64,000 nucleotides of DNA, from contig JAUCBJ010006426.1 in assembly GCA_032718475.1 (NCBI GenBank), forward strand, positions 1-64,000, given 5' to 3'. Under the pieces are notes generated by a model. The model was given only the letters and a program-made list of their open reading frames with translations. It had not been told where the DNA came from and ran no database searches. Shown here piece after piece: positions 20,391-59,265 of the stretch. Position 1 is the stretch's first letter; every line of letters begins with the position of its first letter. Both the position numbers and the translations under genes were made by a program. Source of the stretch: Nemertoderma westbladi. Taxonomy: Eukaryota; Animalia; Xenacoelomorpha.

Positions 20391-21345
20391 TACATGTCTG
20401 TTGTAGGTACCATCAACTCAAGACAGGGGGTGGGGGGGGGGGGGGGTCATGGTTCATGGGTCACGTTTCATTACATACATAGTTCATTCATTACACACAG
20501 TATACTATATGCAGCTGCAGTGTTATAGATAAAATAATAAACTACAGGGTGACAGGTACTGTACAGTATGTAACAGGCAGATTTTATGTTTTATACATCA
20601 GTCAGTCAGCCCGGCGCAGCATTTTGCATTGCACAGAGCCAGTGCATGATTTTTGGCCCTTGCATGGGCGTGGGTTTGCACAGAGCCGACGCAGGATTTT
20701 TAGCACCTGGCGTTGTTTTGCAGAGCCGGCACAGGATTTTTTTTACACCCAGTGTGGTTTTGCTCAGAGCCAGCGCAGGATTTCTGGCACACAGCGGCGC
20801 AGGATTTCTGGCACCCAGCGCCGCAGAAAATAAAACTATTCTAGGGCCTACAATACTACAGTACTGTAATGATTAGTACATTATTTTTTTATAATATTAT
20901 TATAAAAGTATTTATTAATGTAAGTACCGGTACAGTACCGGTCAGTATACCGGTACAGTACAGGGCCGGATTAACCAAAGCAGAGGCCCTGGACTAATAA
21001 AAATGTGGAGGCCCCCAGCCCCCCCCCCCCCCCCCCCCCCCCCCCGTAAAAAAATATCAAAAGTTTGGTTCGAACAAACAAACAGACAGACAAGATATAA
21101 ATACAAAATATTAAATTTTATTTCACCCTGCAGCTGCAAATGAGTCGATGATTCTCTGTAACTTTTAACTTCATCATTTTTCCGAGGCTACAGTAAATGA
21201 CCCGCATTACTTCATTAAACGTGGCTCGGCCCGCAAACTTGGTTTTGTAATTTTGTAATATATACGTTTAATTTCCTGATCCTGTAAATAATATAAGAAT
21301 AATAGGCCTATTTAATATGTTCACTCACAGTTACATCACATTTCT

Positions 21346-24023
21346 TCAGCATTTTAATAAGGCAAAATCATCAATAATTGAGCTGCAATCCATATCACGA
21401 ACAATGTCACTTTCTATAGCCATCAGGGCTAGATTTGATAATCGTCCATGACCCATCGATGAACGCAACACATTCTTAATCCGTTTGAGGAAATTGAAGC
21501 TGCGCTCACCACTACAGTTTGTGGAAAACTGGCAGAGATAGATGCGTAAAGCAACTTCTACATTCGGAAACGTTGATAATAAATCGGAGTCGAATATTAT
21601 TGAATACAGAGACATTGCAGTAATCTTAGCGAGCTTGCATCCTCTAACGAAGCAACAGAACTGCGCAAACTCACCGGGAAAGTCTGGCTCGATATCACAG
21701 CTGTAAATCTCTGTAAGGTGTGTTGCTTTTTGATGCAGGGATTCTGAACTTAGTGATTCAAATTCTGTTAGAAAACCGAATTTATCATAAACTGTCCTGT
21801 ACGCCTCTATGCGGGTATTCAATGCAGCTATCAACTGGTCAATGATAATTAAGAAAGTTTCTCTTCGAAATTTATCTCGGCCTGACAATGGGTCTTCATC
21901 GGGAATCGGGTTATCATCAAAACTAAATCAAAATATTCAGTGTGAAGTAGGTAATTTTGTTCCACGGATGAAACTCTATTATAATAAATTAATTAACTGT
22001 TTAATTAATTTTATTTAATTTATTTAATTAATTTATTTATTTAATTTATTAATTAATAGTATCACTTACCGCGTATTTCGTCGTCGAGTTCTTCTGATAT
22101 TAACAACATAGTCGACATCAACTTTCTTGAGTGCCTTTGCCTCAATTTCATCAAAGCCATGCCTTAAATTGTTTAGAAAGTCGACTAAAGACTTCAGAAG
22201 CGTGATGGCCGAGTTTAAATCAATATCATTTTTCTGTAATGATTTACTTGTTGCATTGAACCGTTGAAGAACTATACTCCACAGCTCGGCCACAATGGCA
22301 GTTTCTAAACTTTCCATATTTGTAGCCAAACATCTCGATTCGTGCCTCACATCAGCCTTCTGATCCTCATCAGCTGAAATACTTTCCAGTGCCTCAGCAA
22401 TCTCTTTAAATTGTTTCATGAACGCTTGGGTTGCATCAGCATGAGCTGACCATCTCGTGTCTGATAGACGCTTGACTGTTACTGGGTGGGGATTGGATGC
22501 AGGATCTTTTGTTAAGCAGTTGGTAAGAACACCCCACCGATATGTAGAAGCTGAAAAAAATGTATAAATATGCTGCAGTAGCCCGAAAAGATACTGCAGC
22601 AGGACAGCAATCCACAGCACATTGGCCAACTAAATTTAGTGAATGAGCGGCACAGGGAATATAATCAACGAGTGAATTCTGCTGCAGCAGCCGCGCTTGA
22701 ACGCCTTTATACTTACCACTCATGTTAGAGGCATTATCGTAACATTGCCCACGACAGTATTTAAAATCTATTTTTAGCTCACTTAAATATTTTAGCAAAG
22801 ATTCTGCAATAACTTCTCCGGAATGGCCTTCAATTTGCAAAAAATGCAAAAAGCGTTCAACGGGTTTGTGGATTTTGGGGTTAATATATCACAACACCAG
22901 CGTCCATTGATCAATATGTTCCAAGTCCGGCGTTGAGTCAATGCTGACTGAATAATATTTGGCATCGTGAACCTCTTGTACTATAATCTTTAAGGCTGTT
23001 TCACCCATTAAAGAAATGAACTCTTCACATTTAGTGGAAGACAAATACGAAACATTCAGACAAATACGAAACATTCCCTCTTCCAGTGTTACCATATTTT
23101 GCAATATGGGTTGATAAGAATGGATCAAATTTGGCTATTAGTTCTAAAGCCCCAAGATAGTTCCCATTAGAAACAGATCCAAATGTTTCATTGTCACCTC
23201 GGAAAGGAAGTCCCCATTCTGATAAAAATTTAACTACAGCAACAATGCGCCTAAGAACATCCCGCCAATAGTTTTTTTCGTTTTCAAACTGAGTTTCCAG
23301 TTCACTGTCAATCCATCCCGGAGCTGTCTGTCTGCTGCAAAAGCTAAACATTGCCTTTCTATGGTCAGCAGATATTTCATGCTCTGCAATATGGTGAGAA
23401 CTGTGTTGCCAGTCACTATATCCAGACTGTGCAAGCTGTGATGTAGATGTTGAATATAGCCGGCATACAAAGCAATATACACTTCCAAGCGATGGTGAAT
23501 AAAGCAGCCATTCACGTTTCACCTTTTCTCCATTACATTGATTGATTCGAGAAAATAAATTTCGTGATAAATAATGTTTCTGAGACTTGGTTTGTCTCTC
23601 GGAGGACATCAAATCCGCATCACGATTCTGGCAGGAAGATGGTCCTATCTTGGACCAATAGTTAACAAGATCGGTGTTGATACTCCACAATGCAGGATCT
23701 GTACTTGGTTTAGTTGATCTTGATATTGCAGGTGCAGGTACTGAATGACTTTGATCAAAATTCAACTCACCAGAATGCCCAGGTTCAAGTTCAACATCAC
23801 CATCATGTGGATCACTGGCTGATGACATATGTAGATCCTCAGCCTCACGATCAACACTCGAAGTTGAAGTTGGCATTGGGAGATCCTGATCAATAATTGC
23901 TGACTGGGATATACTGAAATATTGAGACAATTTCGGCGTCTTTGATAGCAAAAGGTCATCTTCAGCTGTTTTCTTTGCTTTATTCTTTCGCTTTGAACTT
24001 CCACTCATAAACACAGGTGACAT
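21346..24023 (-). pseudogene. hAT transposase, frameshifted, one intron (22069-21923)
   Basis: TTF-type finger (WLLYS...YCFVC...HE.S..H), DSTPD, GQCYDNASNMSG, CAAHSLNL, TRWSA and dimerisation motif CSGERSF..LKRIKN.LRS; a GT-AG intron restores RRNTR|FDDNP; 19-bp duplication at ~23040-23077 breaks the frame. Confidence 0.9.
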
Positions 24024-25177
24024 CTTTCAGTCTTTGAAGTAAGCAGGAAAGTTGTTAAGTTAATAGCAATACAATATATATAATAAACAAAGATTTTTTA
24101 GATTTTATTTTAGATAGATTTTAATTAGGCCTATTTCTTTTGTGTCTGTTATATTGTGTTTGTTTATAGTATCACAGTCCCTAGCCCCCCCCCGCCCCAC
24201 GGCCACACCCACAAACAAACTAACAATCTGACTGCCCCCCCCCCCCCCGGACTGTAATACAAATTGCACTTAATATTTTGGAGCAAAAATAATAATTCAA
24301 TAACTAAAAAACACTAGTACACAGTTTTATAGGTACAGTAAAGTCCGGGGGGGGGGGGGGGGGGGGGCGTCAGATAGATAGTAAAATAATATAATATTAT
24401 TATTATAATACAAAATAATATTGAAAGTGACGTTTTGATTGAAATTGAGCCTATTATGAATAATGATTTCAATATGGCGCCCCCTTTAAAGTGCCAGGGT
24501 GGTGTTCACTGTACAGTATGTATGACTGCCTGCATAGTCGTGTGTGAGCAAGCCAATCCAGTGGCTAGGGGAATGTCAGAGTAGGCCCCTTTCCATTATT
24601 GGTTTGCTTGAGGCTGGCTGTAATGGGATCAATGTATCAATGTAACCAACAAAGAGGTTAATAAAGGCACTACACACTAAGGCAGTGAGCCTATCCTCCT
24701 ACCACACATCACATCCTATCTAGAGGCATTCATTCTCTGCAGTGTTTGTTGGCCTAAGGCTTAAGGTAGATCCGGCCCTGTGAGCGTGAGACAGAGACAG
24801 GTAGTGGTGTCCAGTAGTAGGCTTTGCCTCATCATTCAATGTATACAGTCCAAGCCTGGTGGGCCCTGATCCAGTGCTTGCCTCTATGTTAAGACGGCAC
24901 TGTGTAGGCTGCTGCAGAGATAAATAAATAGGTGTGGGGGGGGGGGGGGGGGGGGTGTGGGTGTGGGGGTGTAACTCGTAGGAAGGGATGCCATAAATAG
25001 TGGATTTCTTGACAGCCTCGGAGCTTAAGCGTAAGCGTTTGCATTCACATAAAAAAGATAAACAATATATTAATTTTTTTAACACCATTTTTTAAATAAA
25101 AAGGTTGTAATTTTTCGAGGCCCCTAGATATCGGGAGGCCCTGGACTGCAGTCCATTTAGCCCTGCTGTTAATCCGG

Positions 25178-26300: not shown

Positions 26301-29300
26301 CCCTTCCATGCATGAATTAATTTTTTTTTCAAATTTTTTCAGAAAAAACTATTTTCTGGTATATTTTTACCTGCAAATTCAGAAAAAAATATCAAAAATT
26401 AAAAAAAATGGTCAGTTTTTGAGCTATGGTGCGTTTTGTCTGCGTGCCACATATGGCACGATATGCATTAGAGGTAACAAAAAGTATAAACCCTTTAGTG
26501 CATGATGGGCCATATATGGCACAACACATAACACGACTCCCACGAAGTAGAAGAAAAATGTGCTTTTAATTTTATTATAATTTCCTTTTTTTATAATTAC
26601 ATAGATAATTACACACAAATCAGTTTGTGTGAAATTTCCTGAAACAATTTTGATCTTTATTAAAACATAAGGCAGTTTGGCATTTTTCGCAACTAACGAA
26701 TGTCCTTTTATGACAGTTTGAAAGTTTACACCTCAGTCGCTTTGGTTCATAAGAAGGCCAATGGCCAGTGCAGTCAAGCCTTATATCATCTCTTGGAAGT
26801 GGGGGTTCCCTTTTCCTTGGTTCTGTGGACAATGTACTTGGGCGACCACCTCTTGCACTTGAAATTCGAGATCCAATTCGGCACATCGTCACTCCTAGAC
26901 TCTCCCGAAACTCTGTGATGGTCATGTTAGAACTTGGACCATGAACCTTCCTGAACAAGATCCAACTATTGACAATAGTTACATCTATTAGATGGTAAAA
27001 CATGCGAAAATACCATTTCTTTGTCTTCATCCTTATTCGGTTTCGACCTAGGAAACTATTATGCAGGTCTACTCCTCCCATAAACCGATTGTACTCACGG
27101 ATTGCAGCAGGCTGTGATACTTCTCTATATTCCCCAGCACTTCTGAAATATCTTCTACATGTTCCAATAGGCATTTCCCCAACATAACTCGATGCCACAT
27201 GTACTGCTTTATTATCATTCCATGCCACTACACTAATATCTACACCTTTCTTTAATTTATCCTGCATCTCACTAACAGTTATATCATCCCCCTCTTTACC
27301 TGAACCATCTGCACCAACAATTCCTCTTCCACCCCCTCTCATTCTGACGTTTCCTCTACTACCTGCACTTCCGGCTCCAATAATTCCTCTTCCACCCCCT
27401 CTCACTCTGACGTTTCCTCTACCACCTACACCTCCAATTCGAGCAATTCCTCTTCCACCCCCTCTCACTCGAATGTTTCCTCTACCACCTACAACTCCAA
27501 TTCCAACAATTCCTCTTCTACCCCCTCTAACTCTGGCATTTCCTCTGACACCTGCACTTGCCGCTCCAACAATTCCTCTACCACCTCTCACTCCAAAAAA
27601 ATCGCTATCACATCCACTGTCTCTCTCATCCTGAACTGGCGCAATGTTGGTTACCACTTCGTCTGAATAACCTCTATCTTCCTTTCCGATATCTGCCACT
27701 GACTTGATTGGAAGTCCAGGAAATCGATTTCTCTGAATTGTCCCAAGCGAGTATATTCCACAGATAGCCAAATATACAAAAAGGCCCAGTGTACTAAAAT
27801 AGTTATCGAAATACAATTTATGGTTTTTATTTCTTGGTATACATCTACTAAGACGCATGACTATATTCGCACTAGCCCCAAGATCAGGTTCGCATGTATA
27901 TCTCTTTGGTTGTTCACCTGAATAGATCTCAAATACATATGTAAAGCCACTGATACCACATAGACATAGAAACTTAAATCCCCACTTATGAGGCTTCTTC
28001 GGGTTATACTGTCTCATGAAATGTTTAAACTTGGTTGCACAAATTTGTTCGTCCACGGACAAATACTCCTCACATGGAATTGTTCCAAACATCTTGTTTA
28101 GATGGTCAATAATAGGTCGCAGCCAAAATAAGCGATCATGATTAGGTTCACCCCTGGGAATCATATTAGTCACATCATTAAAATGTAAGAAGCGGCGAAT
28201 TTTCTCGAATATATTAACTGGCATTGTGTTAATTATTGTAGCATTGCCCATATAATAACTCCAGTAATGTCTGACATTGTTCAGCGGCATTATTGACATT
28301 AAGATGAGTATTCCTAAATATTTTGTGACAAGATTAGGAGTCAAAGAAAATTGTTGATTAACATCAACCTGCCTGGTGTATATATTAGATTCCCAGCACA
28401 TCTTTTCAACAATTTCTTTATTAAAGAAATACGAAAAAAATTGGTATGGTGATTCTAAACAGGTTACCGATTCTGGGAGCACTTCTGGGGAAAATGGATT
28501 GTCATGCCAGACAATGTGGCCTTCTTCCCATTTTACCTGCGTTGCTATGATGCCCAAGTTTGGTTTGAATTGCCCTTGATCGTTATCTGTCGTTGCTATC
28601 TGAACGTCCACTTGATCGTTGATAACATTTTGTTCTTGGCTTTGTTGAACTATTTCTGATGTTGAGGTGCTTCTGATCATGGGATTTTCATGATGTTGAT
28701 TTCCATAAAATCTTCTCACTGGAATTGAAATTGGAGTTTCAATCTCTGATTCCGATCCGGAATCTGATATATCTAATGAACTGCAACTATAATCCGAATC
28801 TGCTGATATGACAATGTTTAATTGTTCAATGTCTTCAAGGTCATCTTCTAAAAAAGAATCATCCATTTTACATTTTGCTTTTACATATCATGTCACACAT
28901 ACAAATTACACATCAATTCCATATTACAGTTAAAGTAAGCCAAATCTCTAAACAACATGTATAATTATTGAAGACATTCAACTAAATCTATAACATGTAT
29001 GTACATACAATCGAATAATTACCAGTTCACATAAATTCCACACAAAATGTGAAGTTATACAATAAATTGTTCAAACTAATAAAATTAAAATAACACTATA
29101 TTATTAATGTAATTTTAGAAGATATTGACAAACTGTTGTCTAGTGCAGTAGATTCATAAAAGATTTAAAACAGAAAAGAAAATGGATAAATGAAAGACTG
29201 ATTGAAATATACAATAGTCTGACTATAAGTAGCTGGATTCAGGCAGACAGGTAGAGTAAACGATGTTGGTGTTCCATTTGTGGCACGCTATGCAGTGAAC

Positions 29301-29712: not shown

Positions 29713-30485
29713 TTAATACTAGGTAGGTATTAGGTAGGCCTATCTGCCTAGGCCTATACCAACATAGACAACAATAATAGGCCTAGTCTAGCCTAGCTAG
29801 ACGGTCATTGAGGGGTTTTGGTTTCGGGGACTGCGCAGGCCTATATGGGGAGAAGGACTGGTGGACGAATTCTAAACTCCACTCCGACCAAGAAACTGCT
29901 GCCTGCATTACAATTATTTTTCTGTCATGTTTGTGCCATTTCATCCTAAACCAATATTGAATAAGTATTAATAAGTTAAACCCACGTTCGTTGTGACCCT
30001 GTCCAATAGTGATAATTGTATTAATATAATTCAATTATTTTATTAAATTATTTTCCAATAATAGGCCTAGTTGAAATAAATGTATACATATCCAGCACCA
30101 GTATTACCGGTATGGTGAAATGAAAAAAATACATTTTAATATTGAAAAAGAAGGAGCAAAGCTATCAAAATTTTTATGGCAAAATATTTTTCTCACTTTG
30201 CATGCACTTCATGACTTTTGATCTTTTGCAAAGATTACTGAGCACTTTCAGTGTTTTTTACACAATTCTGCATAGGCCTATGTTTATTTCAATTCCACTC
30301 ACAGCACTATTGACTATTTCAAATCCGTGCACAATGTGTTGCAGTTTTTGCATTCCATTTTCAGCCTGGTATAGGCATAGACTATACTACAGTACTACAT
30401 ACCAGTAGTATACTAATTAAGATATAAGTAAGTTAAACCCTAGTAAATTTACATTCCCTATGCTATAGGCAGTTACGGACAGTTG

Positions 30486-30817
30486 CCTATATAGGCATCA
30501 ATAGACATTTCCTATTTAGGCAACATTTACAATGTAGTGTTGCCTTTATAGGTAATAGTGATGTATCTTTACTGCCTAATTAGGCAACATGTGACGGTCA
30601 GTGTTATAGATTATATTTTTTAAAATAAAGAATTAATTTGGCGCTGAATATTATTGTTACTTTAATAAATACAACAAGGTATAGCCCTGTAATTGATACT
30701 GGAACCAATTTTATTTACCTGTTTGTCTGGACGCAATGGTGTCTTTTTGTGAGGTGATGTCACTCATGTTGCCTAAATAGGGAACCTCAAAAAATTGGTT
30801 TGTGATGCCTATTTAGG
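30486..30817. promoter_or_regulatory. Six perfect CArG boxes CC(A/T)6GG in the left TIR
   Basis: CCTATATAGG 30486, CCTATTTAGG 30511, CCTTTATAGG 30543, CCTAATTAGG 30575, CCTAAATAGG 30772, CCTATTTAGG 30808; most flanked by GTTG/GATG and CAAC/CATC. The motifs are directly visible; their function is inferred. Confidence 0.75.
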
Positions 30818-31335
30818 CAACTACATACAGACATATACATACTGATATACTTTGATTATAAGAAAACGTTTTGGAGGATTGAGCTCAGTCAATCATTTTA
30901 TCTTTTTTTACTCTGTTACCGATTTCAGGATTTAATTTCTTTTAATTTACTTCCAGTACCTATACTCTTAAGACTGTCATGTCATAGTGGGGATTCATAT
31001 TGCGTAGTAGGCCTACAGTTGTAGCAGAGCAGCGCAGCAGTAGGTATGCCATGTCAAGATACTAGTAGTTATTATTTAGGCTGCTTTTAAGGCTCAGATT
31101 GGCAGATTGTTTCTATTTCGAATTTTTAATAATTGAGTCTGAGCGTTTCTGTATTTAGTATTGTGAAATTTTATACCTTCACTAATTCAGTCAATATAGG
31201 CTAGGCGACTTCATTTCATTGCAAGTGATCAAAGACATATATGTAGTTGCTATTCAGTCTTAAATCAGTTAGTATATACTGGATATTATATAGTGATTAG
31301 AGTACAGCCTTTGATACTGCCGACAGCCAGACTGC

Positions 31336-34300
31336 TTGGCGCCAAACAAAGGAGTAGAAACCGGATTGTGGGCCGCCACTATCCCTCGAAGAGGAATGCC
31401 GTGTTGCAGGTGCGGCATCAACAGCACTTGCGTGCGGGGCTGCGCCTGTGTAAAGGCCAAGATAGACTGCCTGAACTGCGTTCCCGGTAAGCGGAGACGG
31501 TGCCGAAACGGCGGGACCGATTCACCGATCAGCCAATCCCAACCCACCCCGACCAGCGATGGACTACGAGACTTGGTTTCACCCATTTCGTTCTCCCAGC
31601 CAACAGCTACAGAGTCGGGGGGGAGGGACGAGTCCTTCGACGAGACTTTGGTGGTGGAATTGTCGGACAGCGATGGTTCTTTCCATTCGCTCAGCGACAC
31701 ATTGGTGTCACGTAGTTCTGTGTCCGAGGTCAGTCTATCAGCCTCAACGACTCCAGAAGTCGGACTGTCGGGTCCAGATGTGCTCATGGGTCAGGGGAAC
31801 CCCGTTTCGCCAACCATTGATGCCGCCTCCCTGGACTGCGCCTCCGGTGTAGCCCCTACGGTGTCCAGTGCTGCCCCCCTTACCCCAACAGTGTCCGGTG
31901 TTGCCCCCCTCACCCATATGGTGTCCGGTGTTGCCCCACTCTCCACAACGGTGTCCGGTGTTGCCTCCCTAGATCTCACGCATACGGTGTCCGGGGTCGC
32001 CCCTACGGTGGCTGGTGTCGCCGCCCTCACCCCTACGGTGTCCGGTGTTGCCCCACTCACCACAACGGTGTCCGGGGTTGCCCCCCTCGATCTCACCCCT
32101 ATGGTGTCCGGGGTCGCCCCTACGGTGTCCGGTGTCGCCCCTATGGTGTCCGGTGTTGCTCCCCTCGCCCCTACGGTGTCCGGTGTTGCCACCCTCGCCC
32201 CAAATGTGTCTGGTGTTGCCCCCCTCGCCCAAACGGTGTCTGGTGCTGCCCCCCGGGCCCCCATGGTGTCTGGTGGCTCCCCCCTTGCCCCTATGGTGTC
32301 CGGGGTCTCCCCCCTCGCCCCAATGGTGTCCGGTGTTGCCCCCCTCGCCCCTATGGTGTCTGGTGCGCCACTGGTAGCCACAGCAACGCGACCACGCGGA
32401 ACTACGCAGCCGCTGAGTGCCACAACGCCAATAGCTGCCCCAATCCCGCCAACGAACGCCAACTCCAACAGAATAGTTTCATGGGGCAATGTAAGGCTAC
32501 CTTTACTTCAGTTGGAGACCTCGATCAATGGCGTCTACGACGTCATTGTTCACTGGCGACCCAATCTATTTTTGGTTCCACAGGGTATGGTCGGGCGCGA
32601 TTTTGTGGCAGGAATGTCCAATCTTCTGTCACTAGTGACGACGGGGAACCCTCTGCAGTCGTTTGCGCTGAAGGCGTTGATGGCAGCCCCGGCTTTGTTG
32701 CTCCAGAAACCAAGCCGCGCATCAACAACGGCGACACACCGGCGGGTTCTAGAATGCCGGCTGGAAAGTTGGAAACGCGGCGAATTCGGTGAACTCCTCG
32801 TGGAAGCCAGAGCAATTCAGGCGCACCTCCCCAAGCAACGTTTCCGAGCCGATTCTCAGAACGTTGCCATGCAGAAAGCGTTTGTGCGTCACATGCTGGT
32901 GGGAAACGTGTCTGCGGCGACAAGGAGTCTCAGCGACCTGAACCAGGGGAAACCGCTGAAGTTGGACGATACTTTCGTGGACAAAGACGGAACGACGAAG
33001 ATTGTCCGCGATGTTCTGCGGGAGAAACACCCGGCCGCGAAACCCGCCGATGAATCCATTCTCCTCACAGAGTTCGTTGGAGCCCCAGAGTACCACAGCG
33101 TGATATTTGAGCGCCTGAATGGACAGCTCATCTTGTCCAGTCTTCTAAGGATGCGTGGAAACGCTTCGGGACCTTCGGGGTTGGACGTCCAGGGATGGAA
33201 ACATCTCCTGACGAGGTTCCGGAATCAATCAACGGAGCTCTGTGACCGAATCGCCGATTTGGGGAAACTCATATCGCAGACTGTTCTTCCTCCAGGAATT
33301 CTTACACCGTTTCTGTCCGCCCGACTGCTAGCGCTTGATAAGAACCCCGGAGTCCGTCCCATCGGGATAGGCGAGGTTATCCGCCTGGTGGTCGTCAAGG
33401 CGGCGATGACCTGTATCCGCGGGGATCTACAGGAGGTGGGCGGCCAGAAGGCCGGCATCGAGTCCGCCATCCACTCGCTGAACGACGTGTTCGCCACGGA
33501 CAATGGCGACGCCGTCCTCCAGATCGACGCCACAAATGCGTTCAACGCGCTGAACCGCGAGGCGGCGCTGCAAAACATCCGGCTGGTCTGCCCCGCGCTT
33601 CACACCATCGTAGTGAATTGCTACGACCAGCCGTCGTGTTTGTTCGTGGGGGGCGAGACGATGTTCTCGGAGGAGGGCTCGACGCAGGGCGACCCGGTGG
33701 CGATGCCGATGTTTGGCGTCGGTCTCGTCCCGTTACTCGCCGAGCTTATGCGCGCCTGTACTGTCGTTCAGAAGTGGTACGCGGACGACGGGAATGCCGT
33801 GGGGAAACTCAAGGAACTCCAGAAGTTCTGGGACGTGGTGTCAGTGAGGGGGCCTCTCTACGGGTACTACCCGACTAAGTGCTGCCTCACCGTCAAGCCG
33901 GAGAAGTTGGAGGAGGCGAAGGAGATTTTCGCGGACACCGGCGTTGCCATCGACACGGTGGGGAACAAACTCCTCGGCGGAGTAATCGGGACCGAGGAGT
34001 TCCAGCGCGAGTACACCGAGCGGAAGGTGGAGGAGTTTGCCGCCGACGTGGATCGCCTCGCCACCATCGCCGCAGTCGACCCGCACTGCGCGTACGCCGG
34101 CCTCGCCTTCGGTCTCTCCTGCCGGTGGCGGTTCTTGGCGCGCGTCGTCCCGGGGGCCACGGATTCTTTTGGGAAGTTGGAGGAGGCCGTGGAACAGTGC
34201 CTCTGCCGGATCATTGACCGGCCGGCGGTATCGGCGACGGAACGCGAGTTGCTGTCGCTACCGCTTCGGGATGGTGGGCTGGGGATCCCGGTTCCCGAGG

Positions 34301-35288
34301 ATCTACGACCCCAATACGAGAAATACTGCGACCCGTTCATCTCCATGGAGGGCGAGTCAATGGTGGCAGTTAGGGAAGAGCAGACGCACGTAGCGAAGTT
34401 AGTTGCAGCCTCCTCCTCTGTTGTAGCGAAAGCTAAAAAGGAGGAGGTTTATGACAAATTAAGTAGTGAAATGCACAATTTGTGCGGACTAACTACTGAG
34501 AAAGGTGCGTCTGCCTGGCTAAATACCAAACCCTTAACGTTACACGACACTCACCTGTCCAAGGAAGAGTTCCGTGATGCAGTTTGTCTCCGGTACGGTT
34601 GGTCGCCAAGAAATCTTCCCTCTCGTTGTGTCTGTGGGTCGCGATTTTCTCCTTCCCACGTTCTGTCGTGTCCCACTGGGGGGTTCCCCTCAATCAGACA
34701 TAACGAGATCCGCGATTTCATCGCCGACTCCCTGACTGAGGTGGCCCACAACGTGGCTGTCGAGCCGATGCTCCAGCCGCTGACGGGGGAGTCCTTCACT
34801 CTCCGGTCCACCTCGACGGACCAGCAGGCGAGACTCGACGTGTCGGTAAGCGGATTCTGGGGCAACTGCTTCCAGAAGATGTTTATCGCGTGTCGGTGTT
34901 CAACCCGCTGGCGGACACCAACGCAGCGATGTCGCTGGACGCCGCCCACCTCCATCACGAGGCGAGGAAGATCCGGAGATACGAGGAGCGGATCCGTGAG
35001 GTTGAGCACTCAACCTTCACCCCCCTCATATTTTCCGCTTTCGGGGGCATGGCGCCGGCTGCGAAGCAGTTTGTCAAGTGGCTGGCGTTGAGGCTGTCGG
35101 AGAAACGACAGGTTCCCTACCCGGAGTCAGTAGTGTGGGTGCGGCGATGCATCAATTTCGCCTTACTCCGGTCGTCCCTGATGTGCCTCCGTGGGTTTCG
35201 GTCGGCCGCTAGAAGACCGGTGCGGGCAGCGGTGGCGGACGCGTCCATTGTGTGGGCGAACGCGGACTCGGACCCCGGGATGGCTTAG
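31336..35288 (+). pseudogene. CRE ORF: Cys-rich N-terminus, tandem repeat, RT, zinc finger, restriction-like endonuclease; frameshift at ~34888
   Basis: CCRC...C...CAC.....C.NC; GPSG, RPIGIGE, QIDATNAFN, GSTQGDP, WYADD, LRDGGLG; CVCG...HVLSC..GG....RHNEIRD; RLDV...; continuation HEARKIRRY...FTPLIFSAFGG in ORF 34890-35288. Confidence 0.9.
31845..32370 (+). repeat. In-frame ~30-bp tandem repeat (TVSGVAPLAP)n inside the CRE ORF
   Basis: About 18 copies of the core GTGTCCGGTGTTGCCCC. Confidence 0.9.
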
Positions 35289-35607
35289 ATGTTAGAGGTC
35301 TGGCGGGTTTGTTGGGTACTGGCAGTGGCAGACTGGTGATGGGTACTGAACCAATTTGTATGGTTTGTATTGTTGCTAGGTAACAGTTTGAATCAGCTGG
35401 TGGTGGGTTATATTTGTACTTGTTTTGGTGCGTTTTTATATTCGAATTATTGTTTGTTAATATTATAATATATGGAGGCTTTTGAGTAAAAAAAAAAAAA
35501 AAATATACTGTATTAATACATTTATCTCACCATCCAACTGTATATTACACACTATAGTTAGTCAGTCACATACTGTATTTAACCTAAATATATATAACCT
35601 AAACTAA

Positions 35608-37297
35608 ATGGAATTCGAAATTGGGAGCGATACCGATGATGATTGTAATGATTCTGGCCTGATGTTGATGAATAGATTGTGGCAAAATACACTACCCGAA
35701 CTTAATATACCGCCGCACTACTACCCAGTTGATCCACAACCCAAAACACCTCCATTATCCAACTGTGATATCCCATCTACGATTCTATTGGATTTCGATG
35801 ACGAAAGTAAAGATAAATCCTGGTTTCCTGTGAGGAATGATGGCAAGGGCATGTGTAGGGGTGGTTATGGTGTTGGACATGGTGGTTGTGACGGAGGAGG
35901 GGACAATGACATTGGGGTTATCACAGGGGGCATTGAGGGTAGGCCTATTGTAGTTGGTGCAGAAGGTATTTGGGGAGGTGATATTGGGGACACAGTAGTT
36001 GGAACTAACGTCATTGGGGGTGTTATTGGCAATGGGGAAATAGTAGTTGGAACTGCTGAGGACATTGGGGGTGATATTGAGAATATAGTAGTTGGAACTG
36101 AGGACATTGGGGGTGATATTGAGAATATAGTAGTTGGAACTGAGGACATTGTTGGTGATATTGAGAATATAGTAGTTGGTACTGAGGACATTGTTGGTGA
36201 TATTGAGAATATAGTAGTTGGTACTGAGGGTATTGGGGGTGACGTTGGGGACATTGTAGTTAGCGCTGAGGGCTTTGGGGGTGAGATTGGAAGTGGGGCT
36301 GAGAACATCGGACATAAAAAGAGAAAACTGAAATGCAAGACACAGGATCAACTGACTTTCAGTGCTGATAAAAAGCGCAATAGAGATTCAACTCTTTATA
36401 AACGAAAGTCAACCTTAAAATCTAAGTCTGATGATTTGGATATTACGACTCAAGTAAAAACAGACTTAATTTTTATGACCTCAAAGATTTCAAAGACAAC
36501 CAAAAAGGAAGTTTTCCATTTAGAATTTTATTCTTCGCATGATAAACACGCTACCAATACAAGTATTACAAGTCTTCTTTCTGGCCTAAATCTTCCCCTA
36601 TCTACTATTGGCAAACAAGAGTTCTCAACTAAGGGAGAGGCACGACAGGCTGTGGGCCGCATACTTATGGGAGATGAGTCTGCAGGCTATGGTGGCGGTG
36701 GAACTGCATGTGATTCGCATGTGGATGCACCACAGCCACTAGTCACACCAACAAAGGCGCCATATAGTGCAATGCCACGTGTGTTTCCTATTCCATCCCA
36801 AGTATGTAGGATTTGTGGGGTACTTAGTGGAGGAGAACGGGATATGGGAGGCTTGTGGTTTGGATGCCGTGGTATTGAAGGTAAATGTTCTGCATGGGCA
36901 CACGCCACTTGTCTTGGTGTTGGAAAAAATACAACAGCTATTACGGATAAATTGGAATGGAACTGTGCTGTTCATTTATCAGGGATCAGCACAACACAAA
37001 GCCGTGTTACACAGGTAATATCTAATAATCACGAACAAATGTGTCGGATCTGTGGGCGTCAGTATGGTGTCATTGTGGACATCGCTGGCCTTTGGCTAGG
37101 TTGTCAGGGGGGGTGATAGCGTCTTTAAACAGTGGGTCCATGCCCACTGCTTAGGTTTTCCAACTTTACGGAAAGGGAGTGAAACAGAAAAATCATTAGT
37201 GTGGGAATGCAAAGAACTCTCGAAATTACCTAATGTCCCTGTTTTAACCAAGAGAGGTAGAGGTCATCCTGCAAAAAGACAAATAAATAATTTGTAA
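35608..37297 (+). CDS. Transposon accessory protein: acidic 14-aa repeats, MADS-box-like segment, two PHD fingers, AT-hook-like tail (frameshift in poly-G at ~37110)
   Basis: NRDSTLYKRKSTLKSKSDDLDITTQVKTDLIF aligns without gaps to the MADS core; PHD1 CRIC...WFGC....C..WAHATC...WNCAVH; PHD2 CRIC...WLGC / WVHAHC...WEC; KRGRGHP before the stop at 37295-37297. Confidence 0.7.
35990..36270 (+). repeat. In-frame 42-bp tandem repeat (EDIGGDIENIVVGT)n
   Basis: Four near-identical units plus degenerate flanking copies. Confidence 0.9.
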
Positions 37298-37977
37298 TCA
37301 ACTAATTGAGTTTTATAGTTTAATATATAGGCCTACTTGTTGATTTTAAAACATTATTTACCTTTGTAACCTCACTATGCAATGATTTAAATGCAATAGT
37401 TAAGAATTTAATCAGTGAATCATACTTTTAATATTTTGTTTATCTTAAACTCAATTTAAGTATCAAACTCAATTCGAGACAGGGGAGCTGGGAGGGACTT
37501 GACACAAATCACACCTCGATGAATTAAATATATAATCTCGGCAAATTAGCAATGTTAATTATCAATTAAGGGAAAGGAGCAGGTTACAGTGGTATGCTAT
37601 TCTACAATAAACGAAAGTCAATAGCAAAGGCTACAGTGGCATATTATTCTAACCAAAACAATAAATTAAATACATATATTCAGGTTACAGTTTCATTTTT
37701 GAGAGTAACCATCTATGAGTTGCTTTGAATTTCCCCAGGGGAAGGATGAATTTTATTTTAATTGTGTCAAGAGTAACCCACCCCCCCCCCCCCCCCACAA
37801 CCCCATCTGCTCAATTCCAACTGATCATAACAACATTCAATAGGTGATTAGGCTAGGTGATGTATAAGATTTAATCAGTTTCATAATCACTAGAATTACT
37901 TGTATCCGTTTCATTACAGTCCAAGAGAGGCGGGAGTGAAGAGACAGTTTCAGTATAATCCTCTAAATATTTATTTA

Positions 37978-40532
37978 TTAGCACCTGTATATATCAGGGT
38001 ACTCAAAAATATTATTATACAGTTCAATGAACGAATTCTTCAGATGGCATCTTAGAAGTCTTTGTAAAATATGATCACTAATGTCCTTATTTGAGCAATT
38101 TTTAGAAAACCACTCAATAATTGTCTTTAATTGGTCTATGGTTTGATGATCAGACGATTCTTTAAGACATTCTTGCGTATATGTAATTGGAACTGGCTCG
38201 CATTTCGGATTTTCTGATCCTGAAAATACAGCTTTGCAACAAGTTATTAAATTAGTGTAGCCATATTCTAAAAACATTCCAAAATGAGAACTCATTTCTC
38301 CACTTAGTCCAAGTGGATGACGTTTGTCGGGTATAAATTGCGAACTCATTACGAAATGAGAATTGTGTAATAATTTCCTAAATTCCAGTACCATTTTCGA
38401 AAGGTCTACATTTTTTTTTCTCAATATATCAGCTTTGTATGGATCCACTGTATATGATGCAATAAAGACACTGTCTCTCACTTCTGCAAGCGAGTTGACA
38501 GTTCTGTAGTTTGTAATCCATCGTTTCCAAGATGGTAGACCCCCACTCGTATTCCTCTTAATTTTTTTGTGCACTTCTTCTAAAACATAATCTAGCCCCT
38601 GGCCTTTAAATGACAGACCCCGGGAGAAACCTTCATTTTCATACAGTCTTGAAATATACCCAGGTAGCTGCCACTTTTGTATGAAATAGTGTGTTATAAT
38701 TTTTCTGTAAATATGATTTGTGTGTGCAAAAAAGGTTGGTGCGAACTTGAATAAGAAAGTGTCAATTGCTTTAGAGTTGTTGCGTCGAATTCCAGATTTA
38801 AATAAGTAGGCTGATAGTTAGGACCAATTGTCCAATCAAATAACATTTTTTGGGATGGATTCTGAATCTTGTTCGCCCATAGATAAAAATCATTTATTGT
38901 AATATCTGTTGTCATTTTCTTTGCATATATTTCACTGATGGCCAACATCATTATCTCTTTCAAATTAGCAATTAATATTATATCGAATACTTCAGTCATC
39001 TTGTGGTGATCATTTGCTTTTAAAAAGGCTGATTGAGCCTTGGTCGTTTTGTAATTAGCAATTTCGGTAGCAAACATCTGTAGGAATGGTGTCCAAAGAA
39101 TCTTAGTTAAAGTTTTTATCATGTTCAAATGAATATGTCCAAGTCCAGGCTTTAATATAATTTGTGATGCCAGCTCCATATTTTTTTTTAGAATATCAAT
39201 AGCCAGAGAATATGGCAAACCATCCATGACAACAACTAACCACTTTCGGTTTTCTGATAAAAAATGTAGGCATAATTTCTGTAGAGAATTTTCCACTGCC
39301 TCTGATGACCCTGGATCACCTGGAAATGGATCATGTATTCTAAACTGTATGTCACCATCTTTCTTATCGAAATTAATTGATGTGCCATCGATAAAAGGAT
39401 ATGTATCCATTACACGAACACCAGTAGACAATTTGTCAGAGGCAAGATAATCATCATGCAGTTCGTTTACAGAACAACCATTGGAAATAAATTCAGCCTT
39501 GACCTCTTTGAAAACCGAACTTAAGAATCTAAGTCTTGTTGCTGCCGCAAACTCATCCATCTTGTCAACTTCGCATGACAACAAACTATCGAAACTCCCA
39601 CGGTCTATGAACTGAAGCGCAGTGAACTGTGTAGGTTGGATCGTATGGAACAGCATACTAGCAACACTAGTCGTTTTAGATATAGGAACTCCTTGGAATA
39701 TTACATGATAAGTTTTTAGATAATGTTGGTTGTTATCAATGACTACATGCAAATCACCAGGAGTTTCATAAGGAACTTCAAGTGCTTTCTTCATGACCTG
39801 ACCTTTTAGAAATGTGGTGCTTCCACTGGGAGAACCTAAACCTTGTAACATCGTTCCAATTTTACTACTGGAAAGCATATATGACACATACTTCTGCATA
39901 AAAGTAACAGGACCAATAAATGAATTCATCAATAAAAAACATAGTTGTTCAACAGTTTTAATTATTTTGAATTTTATACTTTTTGTAGCTTGAATATCAA
40001 TTGATTCCACATCTGCCATGAAACAGCAAAACTCCAAAAGAGTGGGATCTACATGAGAAAAGAAATTATCGCCAATAATTTCTTCATGAAAACAACCTTT
40101 AAGGTTTGCTGCAGTTTTAATAATAGAGGTTTTTAGAGATTTAAGGTAGTCTTGAATGTTATCCTTCGAATGTGAATCATTCAGATGATATACAACTTCA
40201 ACATTATCCTCTTCCATATTGCCACTTCCAATATAATCGTGCACAGTTGTTTCCTCAGTATATGTCCGTTTGGTTACTTGACTTACATGTTGAAGTAGGT
40301 TGTTTTCATTGAATTCAATTTTTGCAGAATGGTAACAAGAACGGCAAACATACCTGGTACTGGAAGGTCCCATACTTGATGTTGTTTTCTTTCTGATGAA
40401 TGCAACAACTGCGGCACTTACTTTTTTGCGTGCAGGATCAGTGCTCAGCAAGTCTGTAGTTTTATTACATGATCTTACCATGCATTTTGCCTTCCAATGC
40501 CAACTGGATCCTTGAATAGGAGGTACTTCCAT
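37978..40532 (-). pseudogene. Academ/DUF6589-like DDE transposase with one frameshift (~38820)
   Basis: N-terminal CxxxxC...CxxC; VVIDNN (D1); WLVVVMDGLPY (D2); PGLGHIHLN; the shifted frame reads GIRRNN...FFAHTNHIY...GQGLDYVLEEVHKKIK (E) and runs into ORF 37978-38574. Confidence 0.75.
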
Positions 40533-41700
40533 TTGAGATCAAATTATTTGATGTATTATAAGGTCTGAAGGTTAATGCATCAACTCTTACAATTATAATT
40601 TAATTTAATCATTTATACGTAACATATACGTGTACACCACATCTGATCTGTGGTACGTACGTCATACGTATACACTACAGTACATTCCTCATTCCGGGTG
40701 GTCCTCAAACCATTTTATAATGGCTGTCAATGGGAGGATTGAAAGGATTGAATGGCTAACTTCAAACCAAATTTTTTATAAAAATGATGGTTTGAAACTT
40801 TCAATCCGCTCCAGGCGCCTGGTTTGAAAGGATTGAACATCCACATACATTCATTCATTCATACTTGAACATACATTTTTTTTAAAGGCTGTTACTTCTA
40901 AGTTAATTTGATTGATGAAGTCGGTTGGCTTTGTTTGTACAATTTCCGAATGTGGTTACAGACAACACATGCCCCAGGCTCCTTCCCACATACAGCGCCG
41001 ATAATGGGATTGGATACAGGCAGCTCAGCATTAGGATTGAATATTCCAGACATACAAACCTGCAATTTTTTGTGGTTTGAAGTTGGATTGAACAGGATTG
41101 AGGAATGACCCCCAGAATGAAGAAAACCACCCAGAATGAGGAATGTACTGTATACAGGATACCAGGTATATAAAATGATCCTGAGCTATTTATTATAGGC
41201 TTAGGCTGCTATGTGAATCTATGGATCCGGCCAGATAATAACTATTGATTCAATTTACCATTATTTTAATTAAATGAAATAATTAATATATTATCAGACT
41301 AGAGCAAGACAAAAAAATTTACATTTATTCAATAAGGCAGTACAGTATGGTACAATACTGTGTAGTTCAGTCTAGTTATGCCATAATCAATCCCAATCAT
41401 TATTCATTATATTTCATTTTACCGGTAGTGGACTTCATAAATTTTTAATATATGTACACATACAGGCTGACTGACAGGTACCGCGTCATTAAGTCCTTTG
41501 GCCATTAGTTCCTGTGGCATTAGGTCCTGTGGTGTAATATCATGGTGTTGTTAAGGGAAAGGAACAGGTTACAGTGACATCATTCTAACCAAACAATAAG
41601 TCAACCAAATGACGCTTTTTACCTTTACCGAAGATACTAGGCTGAAAGGATATATTTCAAGAGTGGATTAAATATACTGTAGTGCGAGTTAGGCTAGTTG

Positions 41701-42032
41701 CCTAAATAGGCATCACAAACCAATTTTTTGAGGTTCCCTATTTAGGCAACATGAGTGACATCTCCTCACAAAAAGACACCATTGCGTCCAGACAAACAGG
41801 TAAATAAAATTGGTTCCAGTATCAATTACAGGTCTATATACCTTGTTGTATTTATTAAAGTAACAATATTCAGCGCCAAATTAATATCCTTATTTAAAAA
41901 AATATAATCTATAACTCTGACCGTCACATGTTGCTTAATTAGGCAGTAAAGATACATCACTATTACCTATAAAGGCAACACTACATTGTAAATGTTGCTT
42001 AAATAGGAAATGTCTATTGATGCCTATATAGG
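41701..42032. promoter_or_regulatory. CArG box array in the right TIR (4 perfect, 2 with a C>T change)
   Basis: CCTAAATAGG 41701, CCTATTTAGG 41737, CCTATAAAGG 41966, CCTATATAGG 42023; CTTAATTAGG (~41934) and CTTAAATAGG (~41998) are degenerate. Confidence 0.7.
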
Positions 42033-42921
42033 CAACTGTCCGTAACTGATAGGTAATATGAATCCCATAACCTTCATCAATATATTATGGTATATATCAG
42101 AAAAATTGGTATTAAAGCAAACATTGCCAGTAGCATTTCATTGCAATAAGTTATTTAAGTAGGCCTACTGGTACCAGTAGGCCTGGACTACCAGTATTAA
42201 ACCTTTGATATCTGAGGCATATCAGGGCATTGCATGTACTTACTAATATAAGTTAATGCAATGTCTAGTGATGGTCCAGATAATGTTCTTCTGAATTTTG
42301 TAAAAATAATTGAAAGTCAATCCTGATTATAAAAAAGTGTGAGTCAGTCAATCAACAGGTTGGTTTAGTAAAAAGTTGGCAAGTTAATGCTATAATGTTA
42401 TATATATACCTAAAACTCTAAAAGAGATAAAACACTGATAGATAATTGATAATATAAAAAGGAAAGTACATGCACTGCTTAGTGTCACTGTCTTTAAATG
42501 GTACCGGTACTAAAATTCTCATGCCCCCATCTCACATCTAGTAGCCAGTATTATTTGTCTTACAAATATGATTATTATATTTATTACCGGTATTTACTGG
42601 GATATGGCTTCTTCAATCGCTATATATCTTTACAGTTTATAAAAGTAGAGTCCAGATATGATATAGTTTATTTTTTTTTTAGTTTTAGAGTTAAAGAAAG
42701 GGTATTTCCGCGTTTCAGCATCGGTGGCATCATTTTTTTTTGCTACAAAACAGGGCTCTCTGGGAAAAATCTCTCTCTCAAAATTCAGTTACTACACGGA
42801 AAGGACTCAGACACTTTTGCCTAAATTTCCAGTCTCTACAGGAAAATACTGGGAACAATTTTTTAAATTTTTTATTTTTAGTTAAAGAAATTAGTAATAT
42901 TCAACTGGCAATGATGTACAT

Positions 42922-51152: not shown

Positions 51153-54100
51153 TTACGTGGGGGAGTCCCTAGATGTTTGAGGAATTAGGGAGGTGGTCGT
51201 GGGAAGAGTGTCTTGCCTTCCATAGTTCCCAGAGAGTTCTCTGTCTCTTTCCAGTAAACATAAACGACCAACTGGGCGATTGAGTTGTTGCGTCTCAAAG
51301 ATGATGCCTGGCTTCTTGAAGTTACGCCGCATGACGATGAGTTCTACCGAGCGTATTAAACCATCATCTGAGATGTGTGTCTCGATGATACGACCTGTCT
51401 GCCACCGTTTACGTGGGAGGTCTGGATCTACAATAAGCACCATATCTCCGGCGCTGACGTTTTCTTGCTGCGCAAACCACTTAGTTCGAAGTTGTAGCGT
51501 GGGCAGATAATGTTTCTCGAAATGGTCAGCGAAACGACGGGATAGCAACTGCATAAGTTGCCAAGTTCGACGGCAGTATTCGTCTCCGTCGGCAATCTCC
51601 GATCGTGGGAGCATGGCTACAGGTTTCTTCAGTAGGAAGTGCGCGGGTGTTAGCGCTTCCAGGGAATCGGGACTCGATGAGACTGGCATAAGCGGTCTCT
51701 CGTTGAGATAGGCAGCGATTTCCTCCATTAACGTCCGCAAAAGTTCGTCGGTGAGATACGCGCGGCATGGCACTATAAAGTGAAATGCGGTTTTGACACT
51801 TCGAATTAATCTCTCCCAACTTCCTCCCCACCAAGGGGCGTCGGCAGCGTTGAAGGTCCAGCTAGACGCTGTTATCCTTAGCTGGTCGTCCACCTGTCTT
51901 TGGTTCCAGTCCTTCACGTAAGCCTGTATCTCGTTGTTGGCACCTATGAAGTTCGTTCCTTTATCCGATCTCATGGTATTACTCGTCCCGAAGCGAGCGA
52001 TCTGTCGTCGTAAACTTAAGACGAAGCTGTTAGTAGATAGATCGTTCACCATATCGAGATGGATGGCTCTACAAGTCATGCACACGAAGATGACACACCA
52101 TCTCTTGACTATAGTCCTTGCACGATATACTTCAATAGGGCCAAATAAATCTACACCAGTATTAGTAAAAGGTGGTTCATAAAAGCTTACTCGTTCCCTA
52201 GGTAATTCTGCCTCTCACTGTGTTAAAGGCCTACTGAATGCTTTCCTACAGGGTATGCAGTTCCTAAGAACTTGGTTCAGAGCTCTACGGGGTTTATCAA
52301 AATAATAGCGAGTTCGAATTTCGCTAAGAATTCGTTCTCTACCAGCATGATAAAGTTTACCGTGAACGTCTACAATCATCTTGATTTGTACTTCAAGATT
52401 TCTAATAAGTATGGGGAATTTGATGTCAAAGGATAAGGGCGCATTGGTGAGTCTTCCTCCAACACGTATTAACCCATCTATCATTGTGCTCGAGAATCGA
52501 TCCCTTAAGCGCATCTGCGGATTTCTCAACAACAGGAAGTACTTTTCGGAATCCTCATAGCATTGCAGGAGTCTCAGTATCTGCTTATTTGTTTCTTCAT
52601 GCTCCTGGTGACTAATTTTCTCTTTTAGAAAACGATCAGATATCTTATATTTGGGTAAATTCTTAATAACATGAACTTGTGCAGATGTCAATGGAGCGTG
52701 ATCACTAGTGGTCTTCGTCCTGGAGTAGTGATGATGAAAACATCGTCTTAAATATATGACGGCTTTACAGAGCCGATTCCAGTAACTGTAATGATGCATT
52801 GCTCTCTGCAGCATGGGTGAGATTCCTTGCGAGACGTCTGGTATTCCAGATTTCCAATCTTTATCTCTAATTTCCACAACAGACTTATTTGTGTTGAGGG
52901 ATTGTGGATCCGAAGCATAATTCCCGGAAGTATGTAATACAGATAGATCGATAGTCGGTTTAAATAACTTCGATTTACTCGCCCGGGTTTTAGGTTTGAC
53001 TGTCTCCACTCCCTTGGCTTGTCTAATCTCTGCCGTAGTAAGGTGAGGAGGCCATTCATCCTCTTCCTTGCTCAGGAAGTCGGGTCCATCCAACCAATCT
53101 GGAGTATCTATCAGTTCCTGTGGAGTTGCTCCCCTGGAGGCGATATCGGCTGGATTAATCGTACCAGGGCAATGTCTCCATTGATCTATCTTTGTGCGAC
53201 TAAGAATAATAGCTACTCGGTTAGTAACAAAAACGCTAAACTGACAGACTTCATTGGTTAGATACTCTAACACGAGTAAAGCGTCAGTCCAATAAACCGT
53301 TTTCTCCAGTGGATAGTCGATTTGTTCCGTTACGTTCCGGCCGATGGCTGTAGCGTATAAAGCCGCCTTTAACTCCGCTCGAGGAACCTTTAACTTGTTG
53401 TTAATCAATGCCTTAGAGGTAACCAAGGCGACTTTGATTCCATCCGGAGTTTCGACTCGCAGATATGCTACTATACCTATTCCCATGTCGCTGGCGTCTC
53501 CAAACACATGGAGTTGATAGGAATACGTAGGAAGAACATGGCCAAAATATGCACGGGAAATTATAAAGTTCTCGATGGCAGGTAGAGAATCTTCCCATTT
53601 CATCCATTTCTTTAACAATTCCCCTTTAAGCGGATCGTCCCATGAGTGGTTTTCAAGCCACATTTGTTGTACTAAACTCCGAGCAATCAATATAACTGGG
53701 CTAATAAATCCCAATGGGTCGAAATAAGTGCTCAGGATACTTAAACAAATCCGTTTGGTCCGAACTGGATTATCTCGCTGTTTTAACTGAAAAAACAGGA
53801 TGTCTCTTTCAGTGTCCCACTTCAAGCCTAGCGTCTTGGTTTCAGGAAGATCGTCCTTTATTAAATCTAGGTCTTTCGCTCCGCGGTCTTCTACCGGTAT
53901 GGCTTCCAGAAACTCACGGGAGTTGCTAGTGAATTTCGTCCGCCTCTTTTCAAACACTCTACCGTTCCTTTCGCGACAGCTATGGCTTCTTCTACTGATG
54001 GAAGGGACCTTAAATTGTCGTCCATGTATATATTGCATTTTATGTTGTCTATCACTTCTTTGGAGAAGGAGTCTCGGTTATCATTCGCAGTGGTTCGCAC

Positions 54101-58800: not shown

Positions 58801-59265
58801 TTCCCTGGCGTATCCCGCATAATCATCTTGGGTCGCTCGCTTATTTCTCGCCCAATCTGCTTGATGTTCCTCCACCGCAATCGATATAGTTGTTAGCACT
58901 ACGGCAGGAAGGGTGAGAAGGGGGTCCGAGTAGGCTTTAGCCGTCATCTGCACTCCGCGTTCGGGGGTCAGCTCTACAGTATCCGAACTACTGGAGCTAT
59001 CGGATCGCTGGGAACAAGTTTCTTGACTAGGATGTTGCTGCTGTTGGACAGCTGCTTCCTGGTTCCGTTTGACTTGGGCCCGAGTGCCGATGATAGACCT
59101 ACGGTGTTGGATTAGCTTACGGTCTGATACTACTACTGTAGGGATGACCTTTCTTTCAGTAGGAGGTGAGCTGAACTCCTTTCTTAATCGCTCCACACTC
59201 CTATCTGTGTCACAGATGGTTGTATCGATTAGACTGTCTGACAGGTTTTGCTGAGTGTCAGACAT
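55856..59265 (-). pseudogene. gag: BEL/Pao gag with long N-terminal coiled-coil/Ala-rich extension, disrupted
   Basis: DUF1759-like FNGD...W..F...EKLRFL..CLEG; knuckles CALCDGTHRLSAC, CYNCLRPGHQRRTC, CAKCGAKHHILLH; stop at 55955 and frame break near 57058. Confidence 0.88.

Follow-up and report, generated by a model that had tools for sequence, protein, structure and literature searches.

A two-gene DNA transposon of Nemertoderma westbladi with a MADS-like partner protein and CArG-box arrays in its inverted repeats: a possible end-recognition module

Several described transposon systems combine a transposase with a DNA-binding protein or with repeated binding sites. PIF/Harbinger elements carry a transposase gene and a separate gene for a DNA-binding protein (PMC8616336, in excerpt), and VANDAL elements encode VANC, a protein that is sequence-specific and whose repeated targets lie in the very element that encodes it (PMC5735166, in excerpt). 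In terms of termini, CMCT elements are characterized by CA..TG ends and a target-site duplication of 2-5 bp (PMC12730594, in excerpt), and the duplication is 3-4 bp in AcademX and 9-10 bp in AcademH (PMC10045372, in excerpt). MADS-box genes have been found among the cargo of Starship elements (bioRxiv 10.1101/2024.06.28.601215, in excerpt), and further context is given in excerpts of PMC10799480, PMC5751038 and PMC9587614. In the papers searched, no transposon bounded by terminal inverted repeats (TIRs) that encodes a MADS protein and has CArG ends was described; Repbase, subscription journals and supplements were outside this search, and Repbase or Kojima 2020 might list such families.

We have analyzed a 64,000-nucleotide stretch of Nemertoderma westbladi DNA (contig JAUCBJ010006426.1), hereafter the window, in which positions 30470-42048 are a DNA transposon with 354-bp TIRs and a 5-bp target-site duplication. 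On the one hand, the element resembles PIF/Harbinger, as far as the excerpt describes that family, in its design of a transposase with its own DNA-binding protein gene. On the other hand, the PIF/Harbinger partner is a SANT/Myb/trihelix protein and the duplication is 3 bp, whereas here the partner is MADS-like and the duplication is 5 bp, and no Pfam match to a SANT/Myb partner or a Harbinger transposase was found in the element proteins. The likeness to VANC lies in a transposon-encoded protein with repeated candidate sites on the same element; however, the fold is unrelated, the host elements are of the plant MuDR type and, according to the VANC excerpt, the targets are internal, while the boxes described here are terminal. 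With SRF/MEF2 proteins (PF00319; PDB 6byy) and the CArG box, the element shares core helix residues, the box consensus and a GGNAA extension, but its domain lies under the Pfam cut-off and within a 562-aa transposon protein having two PHD-like fingers. The element adds variation to the two-gene transposon design, namely a MADS-like partner and a matching site array.

Ends, nested insertions and reading frames of the element

The TIR arms are 96% identical over 357 alignment columns and are the longest inverted repeats of the window, in agreement with the boundaries that an earlier sequence-only reading had given. In public contigs of runs X1 and X2, which come from two studies, an empty site was present: 30464 is joined there to 42049, and five letters are shared at the joint; the joint was absent among the contig joints listed for runs X3 and X5. 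Considering that the depth of this joint is above that of the element interior, the joint may stem from a repeated flank, in one of its paralogous copies, and the empty site may thus be either an allele or such a copy. In both cases, the joint fixes the element ends and the 5-bp duplication. TIRs, a target-site duplication and an empty site, three features of a TIR DNA transposon, were found. The duplication ATAGG, the nested 4,229-bp retrotransposon and the frameshifts in both element genes were absent from the sequence-only reading. The coordinates of all features are listed in Table 1.

Table 1. Positions of the element features in the window
Feature	Position	Strand	Basis or remark
Left target-site duplication, ATAGG	30465..30469	+	sequence and empty-site joint
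Left TIR, 354 bp, starts CAGTT, six boxes	30470..30823	+	inverted-repeat comparison and box count
Left-TIR CC(A/T)6GG boxes, 6/6 perfect	starts 30486, 30511, 30543, 30575, 30772, 30808		sequence
Nested non-LTR retrotransposon, 4,229 bp, foreign to the native element	31282..35510	+	RVT_1 E 0.015
Retrotransposon parts	RT ORF 31315-35091; poly-A 35488-35503	+	
Retrotransposon 8-bp duplication, ATATACTG	31274-31281 and 35503-35510		
Partner gene, 562 aa with the differences of X3; frameshift near 37107	35608..37297	+	ORF reading
Basic arm and MADS-like domain, core 36370-36474	36316..36585	+	Pfam, Atlas, MEF2 alignment
PHD-like finger 1, last ligand pair C..H	36805..36975	+	Pfam PHD E 0.0031
PHD-like finger 2, split by the frameshift	37042..37220	+	second half PHD E 0.061
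Basic tail KRGRGHP, imperfect likeness to an AT-hook	37250..37270	+	sequence
Transposase-like gene, 887 aa with the differences of X3; breaks at 38818 and 37988 in the window copy	37871..40532	-	ORF reading
N-terminal C-x4-C...C-x2-C, residues 17-66	40484-40335	-	sequence
Candidate catalytic motifs	VIDNN 39743, VMDG 39230, GLGHIH 39146, DYVLEE 38592	-	picked by eye, assignment inferred
Probable small nested element with 27-bp inverted repeats at its ends	40676..41152	.	sequence
Right TIR, four perfect boxes and two one-mismatch boxes	41695..42048	-	inverted-repeat comparison and box count
Right-TIR CC(A/T)6GG boxes, 4/6 perfect	starts 41701, 41737, 41966, 42023		sequence
Right-TIR imperfect boxes	41934, 41998		CT in place of CC (mismatched bases 41935, 41999)
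Right target-site duplication, ATAGG	42049..42053	+	sequence and empty-site joint

The native element measures 7,350 bp (about 7.35 kb) with two small nested repeats included and the retrotransposon excluded. Contig 17 of X3 joins 31281 to 35516 with five letters between them, which corresponds to the site without the retrotransposon. This insertion, which we take to be CRE-like, has a Cys-rich N-terminus, a long segment of 27-33-bp tandem repeats, a reverse transcriptase and a C-terminal nuclease-like region, and it is frameshifted near 34888, where the contigs of all four runs have an extra base. Positions 37557-37700 and 41554-41600 belong to a short repeat family inside the element with a summed depth above 10,000 in the runs, and 37745-37833 is skipped by the X1 and X2 contigs. 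The window is transposon-rich eukaryotic DNA with piggyBac-like, hAT-like, LINE-like and BEL-like frames recognized by eye; frames named piggyBac-like, hAT-like and BEL/Pao-like lie at 19290-20528, 21346-24026, 26620-28887 and 51153-59271, of which the piggyBac-like frame 26620-28887 carries a Gly/Arg-rich insertion in its core.

The two genes of the element are convergent, and both are frameshifted in the window copy. When 29 listed X3 substitutions, with 14 further ones left aside, and four of the indels listed for this run were applied to the window sequence, both genes became fully open. Run X2 has the same indels with an extra base at 37214, and X1 retains the breaks of the window copy with one more at 39181. 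In the basic arm of the partner protein, residue 246 is Arg in all three runs (X1-X3) versus Gln in the window copy, and residue 243 is Arg in two of the three versus Cys. In the second PHD-like finger, the window copy has Phe at 37125 and Leu at 37218, for which X2 and X3 have Cys and His. Because the X3 differences restore these finger ligands and arginines of the basic arm, the window copy belongs, in decayed form, to a family whose genes are intact, and the open frames together with the recovered Cys and His indicate a partner gene that was still intact at the time of transposition.

MADS-like partner protein and box arrays

The partner protein begins with an acidic, Gly/Ile/Val-rich region encoded with 42-bp repeats. 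The sequence-only reading had placed a MADS-like peptide at 36379-36474 in the second ORF of the element, and we located it there, in ORF 35608-37116. It had also proposed a profile search against SRF-TF (PF00319). In this search SRF-TF was the top Pfam family, with E 0.0013 for the whole ORF and E 5.7e-5 for a trimmed query, but the score of 22.9 bits did not reach the gathering cut-off of 26. Accordingly, the proposed MADS resemblance stood in the ranking, with MADS coming first in Atlas and PDB searches as well, and fell short in the score. The ten best family-bearing Atlas matches all fall into a single family or clan, headed by MADS clusters. Three clusters scored 0.81, two of them named MADS-box and two with SRF-TF, and this score is at the level of a lead and was also reached by a third of shuffled proteins. 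The sole PDB sequence match was a MEF2 chimera (E 0.77, gapless over the core), and the trimmed 56-aa core gave no PDB sequence at E<=10.

In the MEF2 alignment, R15, N16, R17, T20, K23, R24, K25, L28 and K31 are kept, and G27, K30 and E34 are not. The residues K23, R24 and K31 of helix 1, which are in register here, are DNA-contact or DNA-facing residues in MEF2B, and the E14K substitution gives MEF2A more bending and binding to SRF sites (PMC7470950, in excerpt). Position 14 of the element protein is Lys, and the SRF site is the type of box present in its TIRs. A single-sequence monomer model of low confidence (pLDDT 42) has no first helix and shows strand-strand-helix after the core; a Foldseek search with this low-confidence model returned no fold match. 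Based on the sequence comparisons, we consider it very probable that the segment is of MADS ancestry.

Downstream of this segment, the PHD fingers named in the sequence-only reading obtained profile support for both positions, but under the cut-off; finger 1 scored 18 bits against 24 for PF00628, with His as its last ligand. Four of its five PDB matches were from KDM5A/B and Pps (E 0.18-0.72). The AT-hook-like tail is present as a basic KRGRGHP, but the core arginine that we take to be usual for an AT-hook is missing.

Six CArG sites per TIR, six perfect on the left and four on the right, had been counted in the sequence-only reading and were recovered at the starts in Table 1. On the left they are spaced by 25, 32, 32, 197 and 36 bp. 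The first box starts 17 bp from the element tip, and the two ends carry mirror-image arrays. Runs X1, X2 and X3 have C at both mismatched right-TIR bases and hence six perfect boxes out of six; this indicates, and does not prove, that the true right end has all six, because both TIRs probably collapse into one run contig. When the left TIR was shuffled 20,000 times with its dinucleotides approximately preserved, the shuffles held 0.053 boxes on average and 2 at most, versus the six real boxes. The remaining 63,292 bases of the window outside the TIRs contain eight CC(A/T)6GG sites, and CCTAWWTAGG occurs five times in the left TIR versus none in those bases. A general enrichment of TAGG in the genome was rejected as the source of the boxes (401 observed versus 454 expected). 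As a separate observation, the 8-mer TAGGCCTA outside the TIRs was counted 34 times over both strands of the palindrome versus 1.5 expected and is unrelated to the boxes.

The sequence-only reading had described an A/T core that varies between constant CC/GG and flanking TTG/CAA. The constant CC/GG was borne out, but the core is not freely variable. Among the 12 left-TIR half-sites, CCT is invariant, the following A is present in 11 and only the two central bases vary. The flank was upheld in part, with T at -2 in 12/12 but T at -3 and G at -1 in 9/12 each. The motif is thus a longer dyad, about TGTTGCCTAWWTAGGCAACA, in which only the central two bases are free, and dimer sites are likewise dyads. 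Of the left-TIR half-sites, 9/12 carry the GGNAA extension that plant MADS sites are reported to have (PMC6019531, in excerpt), versus 2/16 half-sites of the other boxes of the window.

Transposase-like protein and relatives

The transposase-like protein gave no Pfam match, and no nuclease or helicase family was detected in either element gene (Pfam, E<=1). Its single-sequence model has a pLDDT of 34, a confidence at which the Foldseek search was uninformative. The D, D and E residues picked by eye are candidates for the catalytic positions of a DDE transposase with an RNase H fold. Its language-model neighbors in the Atlas were hypothetical clusters of Mucoromycota (0.93 and 0.91) and, with 197 features in common, a DUF6589 cluster (0.90). 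We take DUF6589 to be the Academ-type transposase; the protein is probably Academ-related and is left unclassified. The likeness to Academ is at the feature level only, the element has in addition a MADS-PHD gene that is separate and convergent, and at 5 bp its duplication lies outside the ranges of both AcademX and AcademH. AcademX and AcademH encode a nuclease or helicase according to the excerpt of PMC10045372, whereas Pfam detected neither in the genes of this element. Like CMCT elements such as EnSpm and Transib/RAG-like transposons, the element has CA..TG termini and a duplication within 2-5 bp, as given in the excerpt of PMC12730594. However, neither C(2)C nor H(3-4)H lies between candidate D2 and E (the only C..C is at residue 63), and the partner is not RAG2-like. 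The C/DxxH signature of hAT/P/MuDR/Kolobok/Dada is not present either, and GLGH follows candidate D2. The convergent two-gene layout with a PHD-bearing partner is one that RAG transposons presumably share.

No transposase relative was found among 6,102 candidates at E<=0.001, among 850 candidates in which the C-terminal part was compared with longer proteins (E<=0.1), or in metagenome and viral contigs. For the MADS-PHD part, 411 candidates contained no relative, and a full HMMER scan of 1.84 billion sequences returned two matches, P0001 and P0002. The former was rejected as the translation of a long tandem repeat. The latter is a true relative of the PHD part, and P0003 is a longer member of its cluster. 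P0003 (ENA, 14,942-bp contig) is 275 aa long, shares the C..H-ending PHD variant and has an upstream basic segment that may be a further degenerate MADS. It has no SRF-TF match and aligns in two registers, in one of which the KRK run is missing. A scan of viral contigs with P0003 found none.

In metagenomes, a pattern search identified 76 loci with paired boxes, 36 of them with at least three CCTW4AGG sites, and 0/76 encode a relative of either protein detectable by tblastn, phmmer or motif. Since such palindromes also cluster in unrelated DNA that has no MADS gene, the motif alone is no pointer to a MADS protein. At four loci (L003:145-441, L009:905-1201, L041 and L064), which lie on eukaryotic-looking contigs, we observed a MITE-like, near-palindromic repeat family of about 300 bp with ends TACTGTAAAA...TTTTACAGTA and two central GCCTATATAGGC boxes. 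Other clusters lie in a giant-virus-like contig (L038:9950-10045) and between two divergent plant Myb genes (L012:4622-5420).

Possible role of the MADS-like protein at the element ends

We are inclined to think that a MADS-like dimer of the element binds the end boxes. This reading is favored by boxes beyond chance, the confinement of CCTAWWTAGG to the TIRs, the dyads and the GGNAA extension, and also by the kept MEF2 contact residues, Lys14 and the arginines at 243 and 246 in the runs. It is weakened by the SRF-TF score under the cut-off, the Atlas value shared with shuffled proteins, the loss of G27, K30 and E34, and by P0002 and P0003, which have no SRF-TF match and of which the alignment lacks KRK in one of two registers. 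The Cys-rich N-terminal finger of the transposase, which could itself read the boxes, also argues against it. Considering that the array starts so near the tip and is mirrored, we propose a role as an organizer of the ends. In this mechanism, the partner protein would have descended from an SRF-type MADS factor and would dimerize and bind TTGCCTAWWTAGGCAA; boxes 2-4, 32 bp apart or about three turns, would place bends in phase, and the phased bends would present the CAGTT at the tip to the transposase. The MADS-like partner would then play the end-presenting role that is given to Myb/SANT proteins in Harbinger, and the PHD-like fingers may hold the complex on chromatin, either to choose targets or to escape silencing. 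That the dimer both binds the boxes and organizes the ends for the transposase is a tentative proposal, to which we assign somewhat less than an even chance.

The boxes may instead be promoter sites, since both genes point inward from the TIRs. The MADS-PHD protein would then bind them and drive the transcription of the two genes or protect them from silencing, outside the cutting complex, for which VANC of Arabidopsis VANDAL elements may be taken as a precedent (PMC5735166, in excerpt). However, the mirrored array close to the tip is the layout of end-binding sites and no CC(A/T)6GG box occurs between the TIRs and the start codons, so we regard this explanation as unlikely. We also give a low probability to the explanation that the transposase reads the palindromes through its N-terminal C-x4-C...C-x2-C finger, with the CArG likeness being coincidental and the MADS-like protein a transposase partner, decoy or passenger. 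Transposases commonly bind repeated subterminal motifs, which speaks in its favor, as do the palindrome clusters in DNA without a MADS gene; but it needs the sole non-transposase DNA-binding fold of the element to match the end motif by chance, GGNAA and Lys14 included.

Recruitment of host SRF by the boxes, with the divergent element protein acting only through heterodimers or as a competitor, would suit the left boxes, all six of which match the canonical CC(A/T)6GG, and the loss of several conserved MADS positions in the element protein. We hold it to be quite improbable, because the tight CCTAWWTAGG core and a T at -2 that never varies suggest a single dedicated binder, and the element protein retains DNA-contact residues. 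Least credible, and in our view very improbable indeed, is a segment not derived from MADS, in which the profile is mimicked by a basic helix and the strand after it. Every score is under the curated thresholds and no fold match was obtained, which favors this explanation, but MADS came first in the sequence searches of Pfam, Atlas and PDB, and no other family came near.

In summary, binding and organization of the ends by the MADS-like partner is a plausible interpretation, resting on sub-threshold sequence matches and on co-location in one family. We tentatively suggest, as a possibility slightly short of even, that an undescribed lineage of Academ-related animal transposons captured an SRF-type MADS factor and rebuilt its ends from the sites of that factor. 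The factor and its sites, a domesticated pair from the host, would form the end-recognition module, and the PHD fingers would link it to chromatin. Such a finding would give a function to the accessory gene of a poorly known transposase group, and the two-component system can be tested directly by gel shift and excision assay. Domestication is usually told as a transfer from transposon to host; if true, this would be the reverse case, with a protein and its cognate site on one 7-kb element. Up to twelve CArG boxes per insertion, readable by host SRF, are predicted, and the element, if the proposal is true, would spread SRF sites in finished form across the genome of its host.
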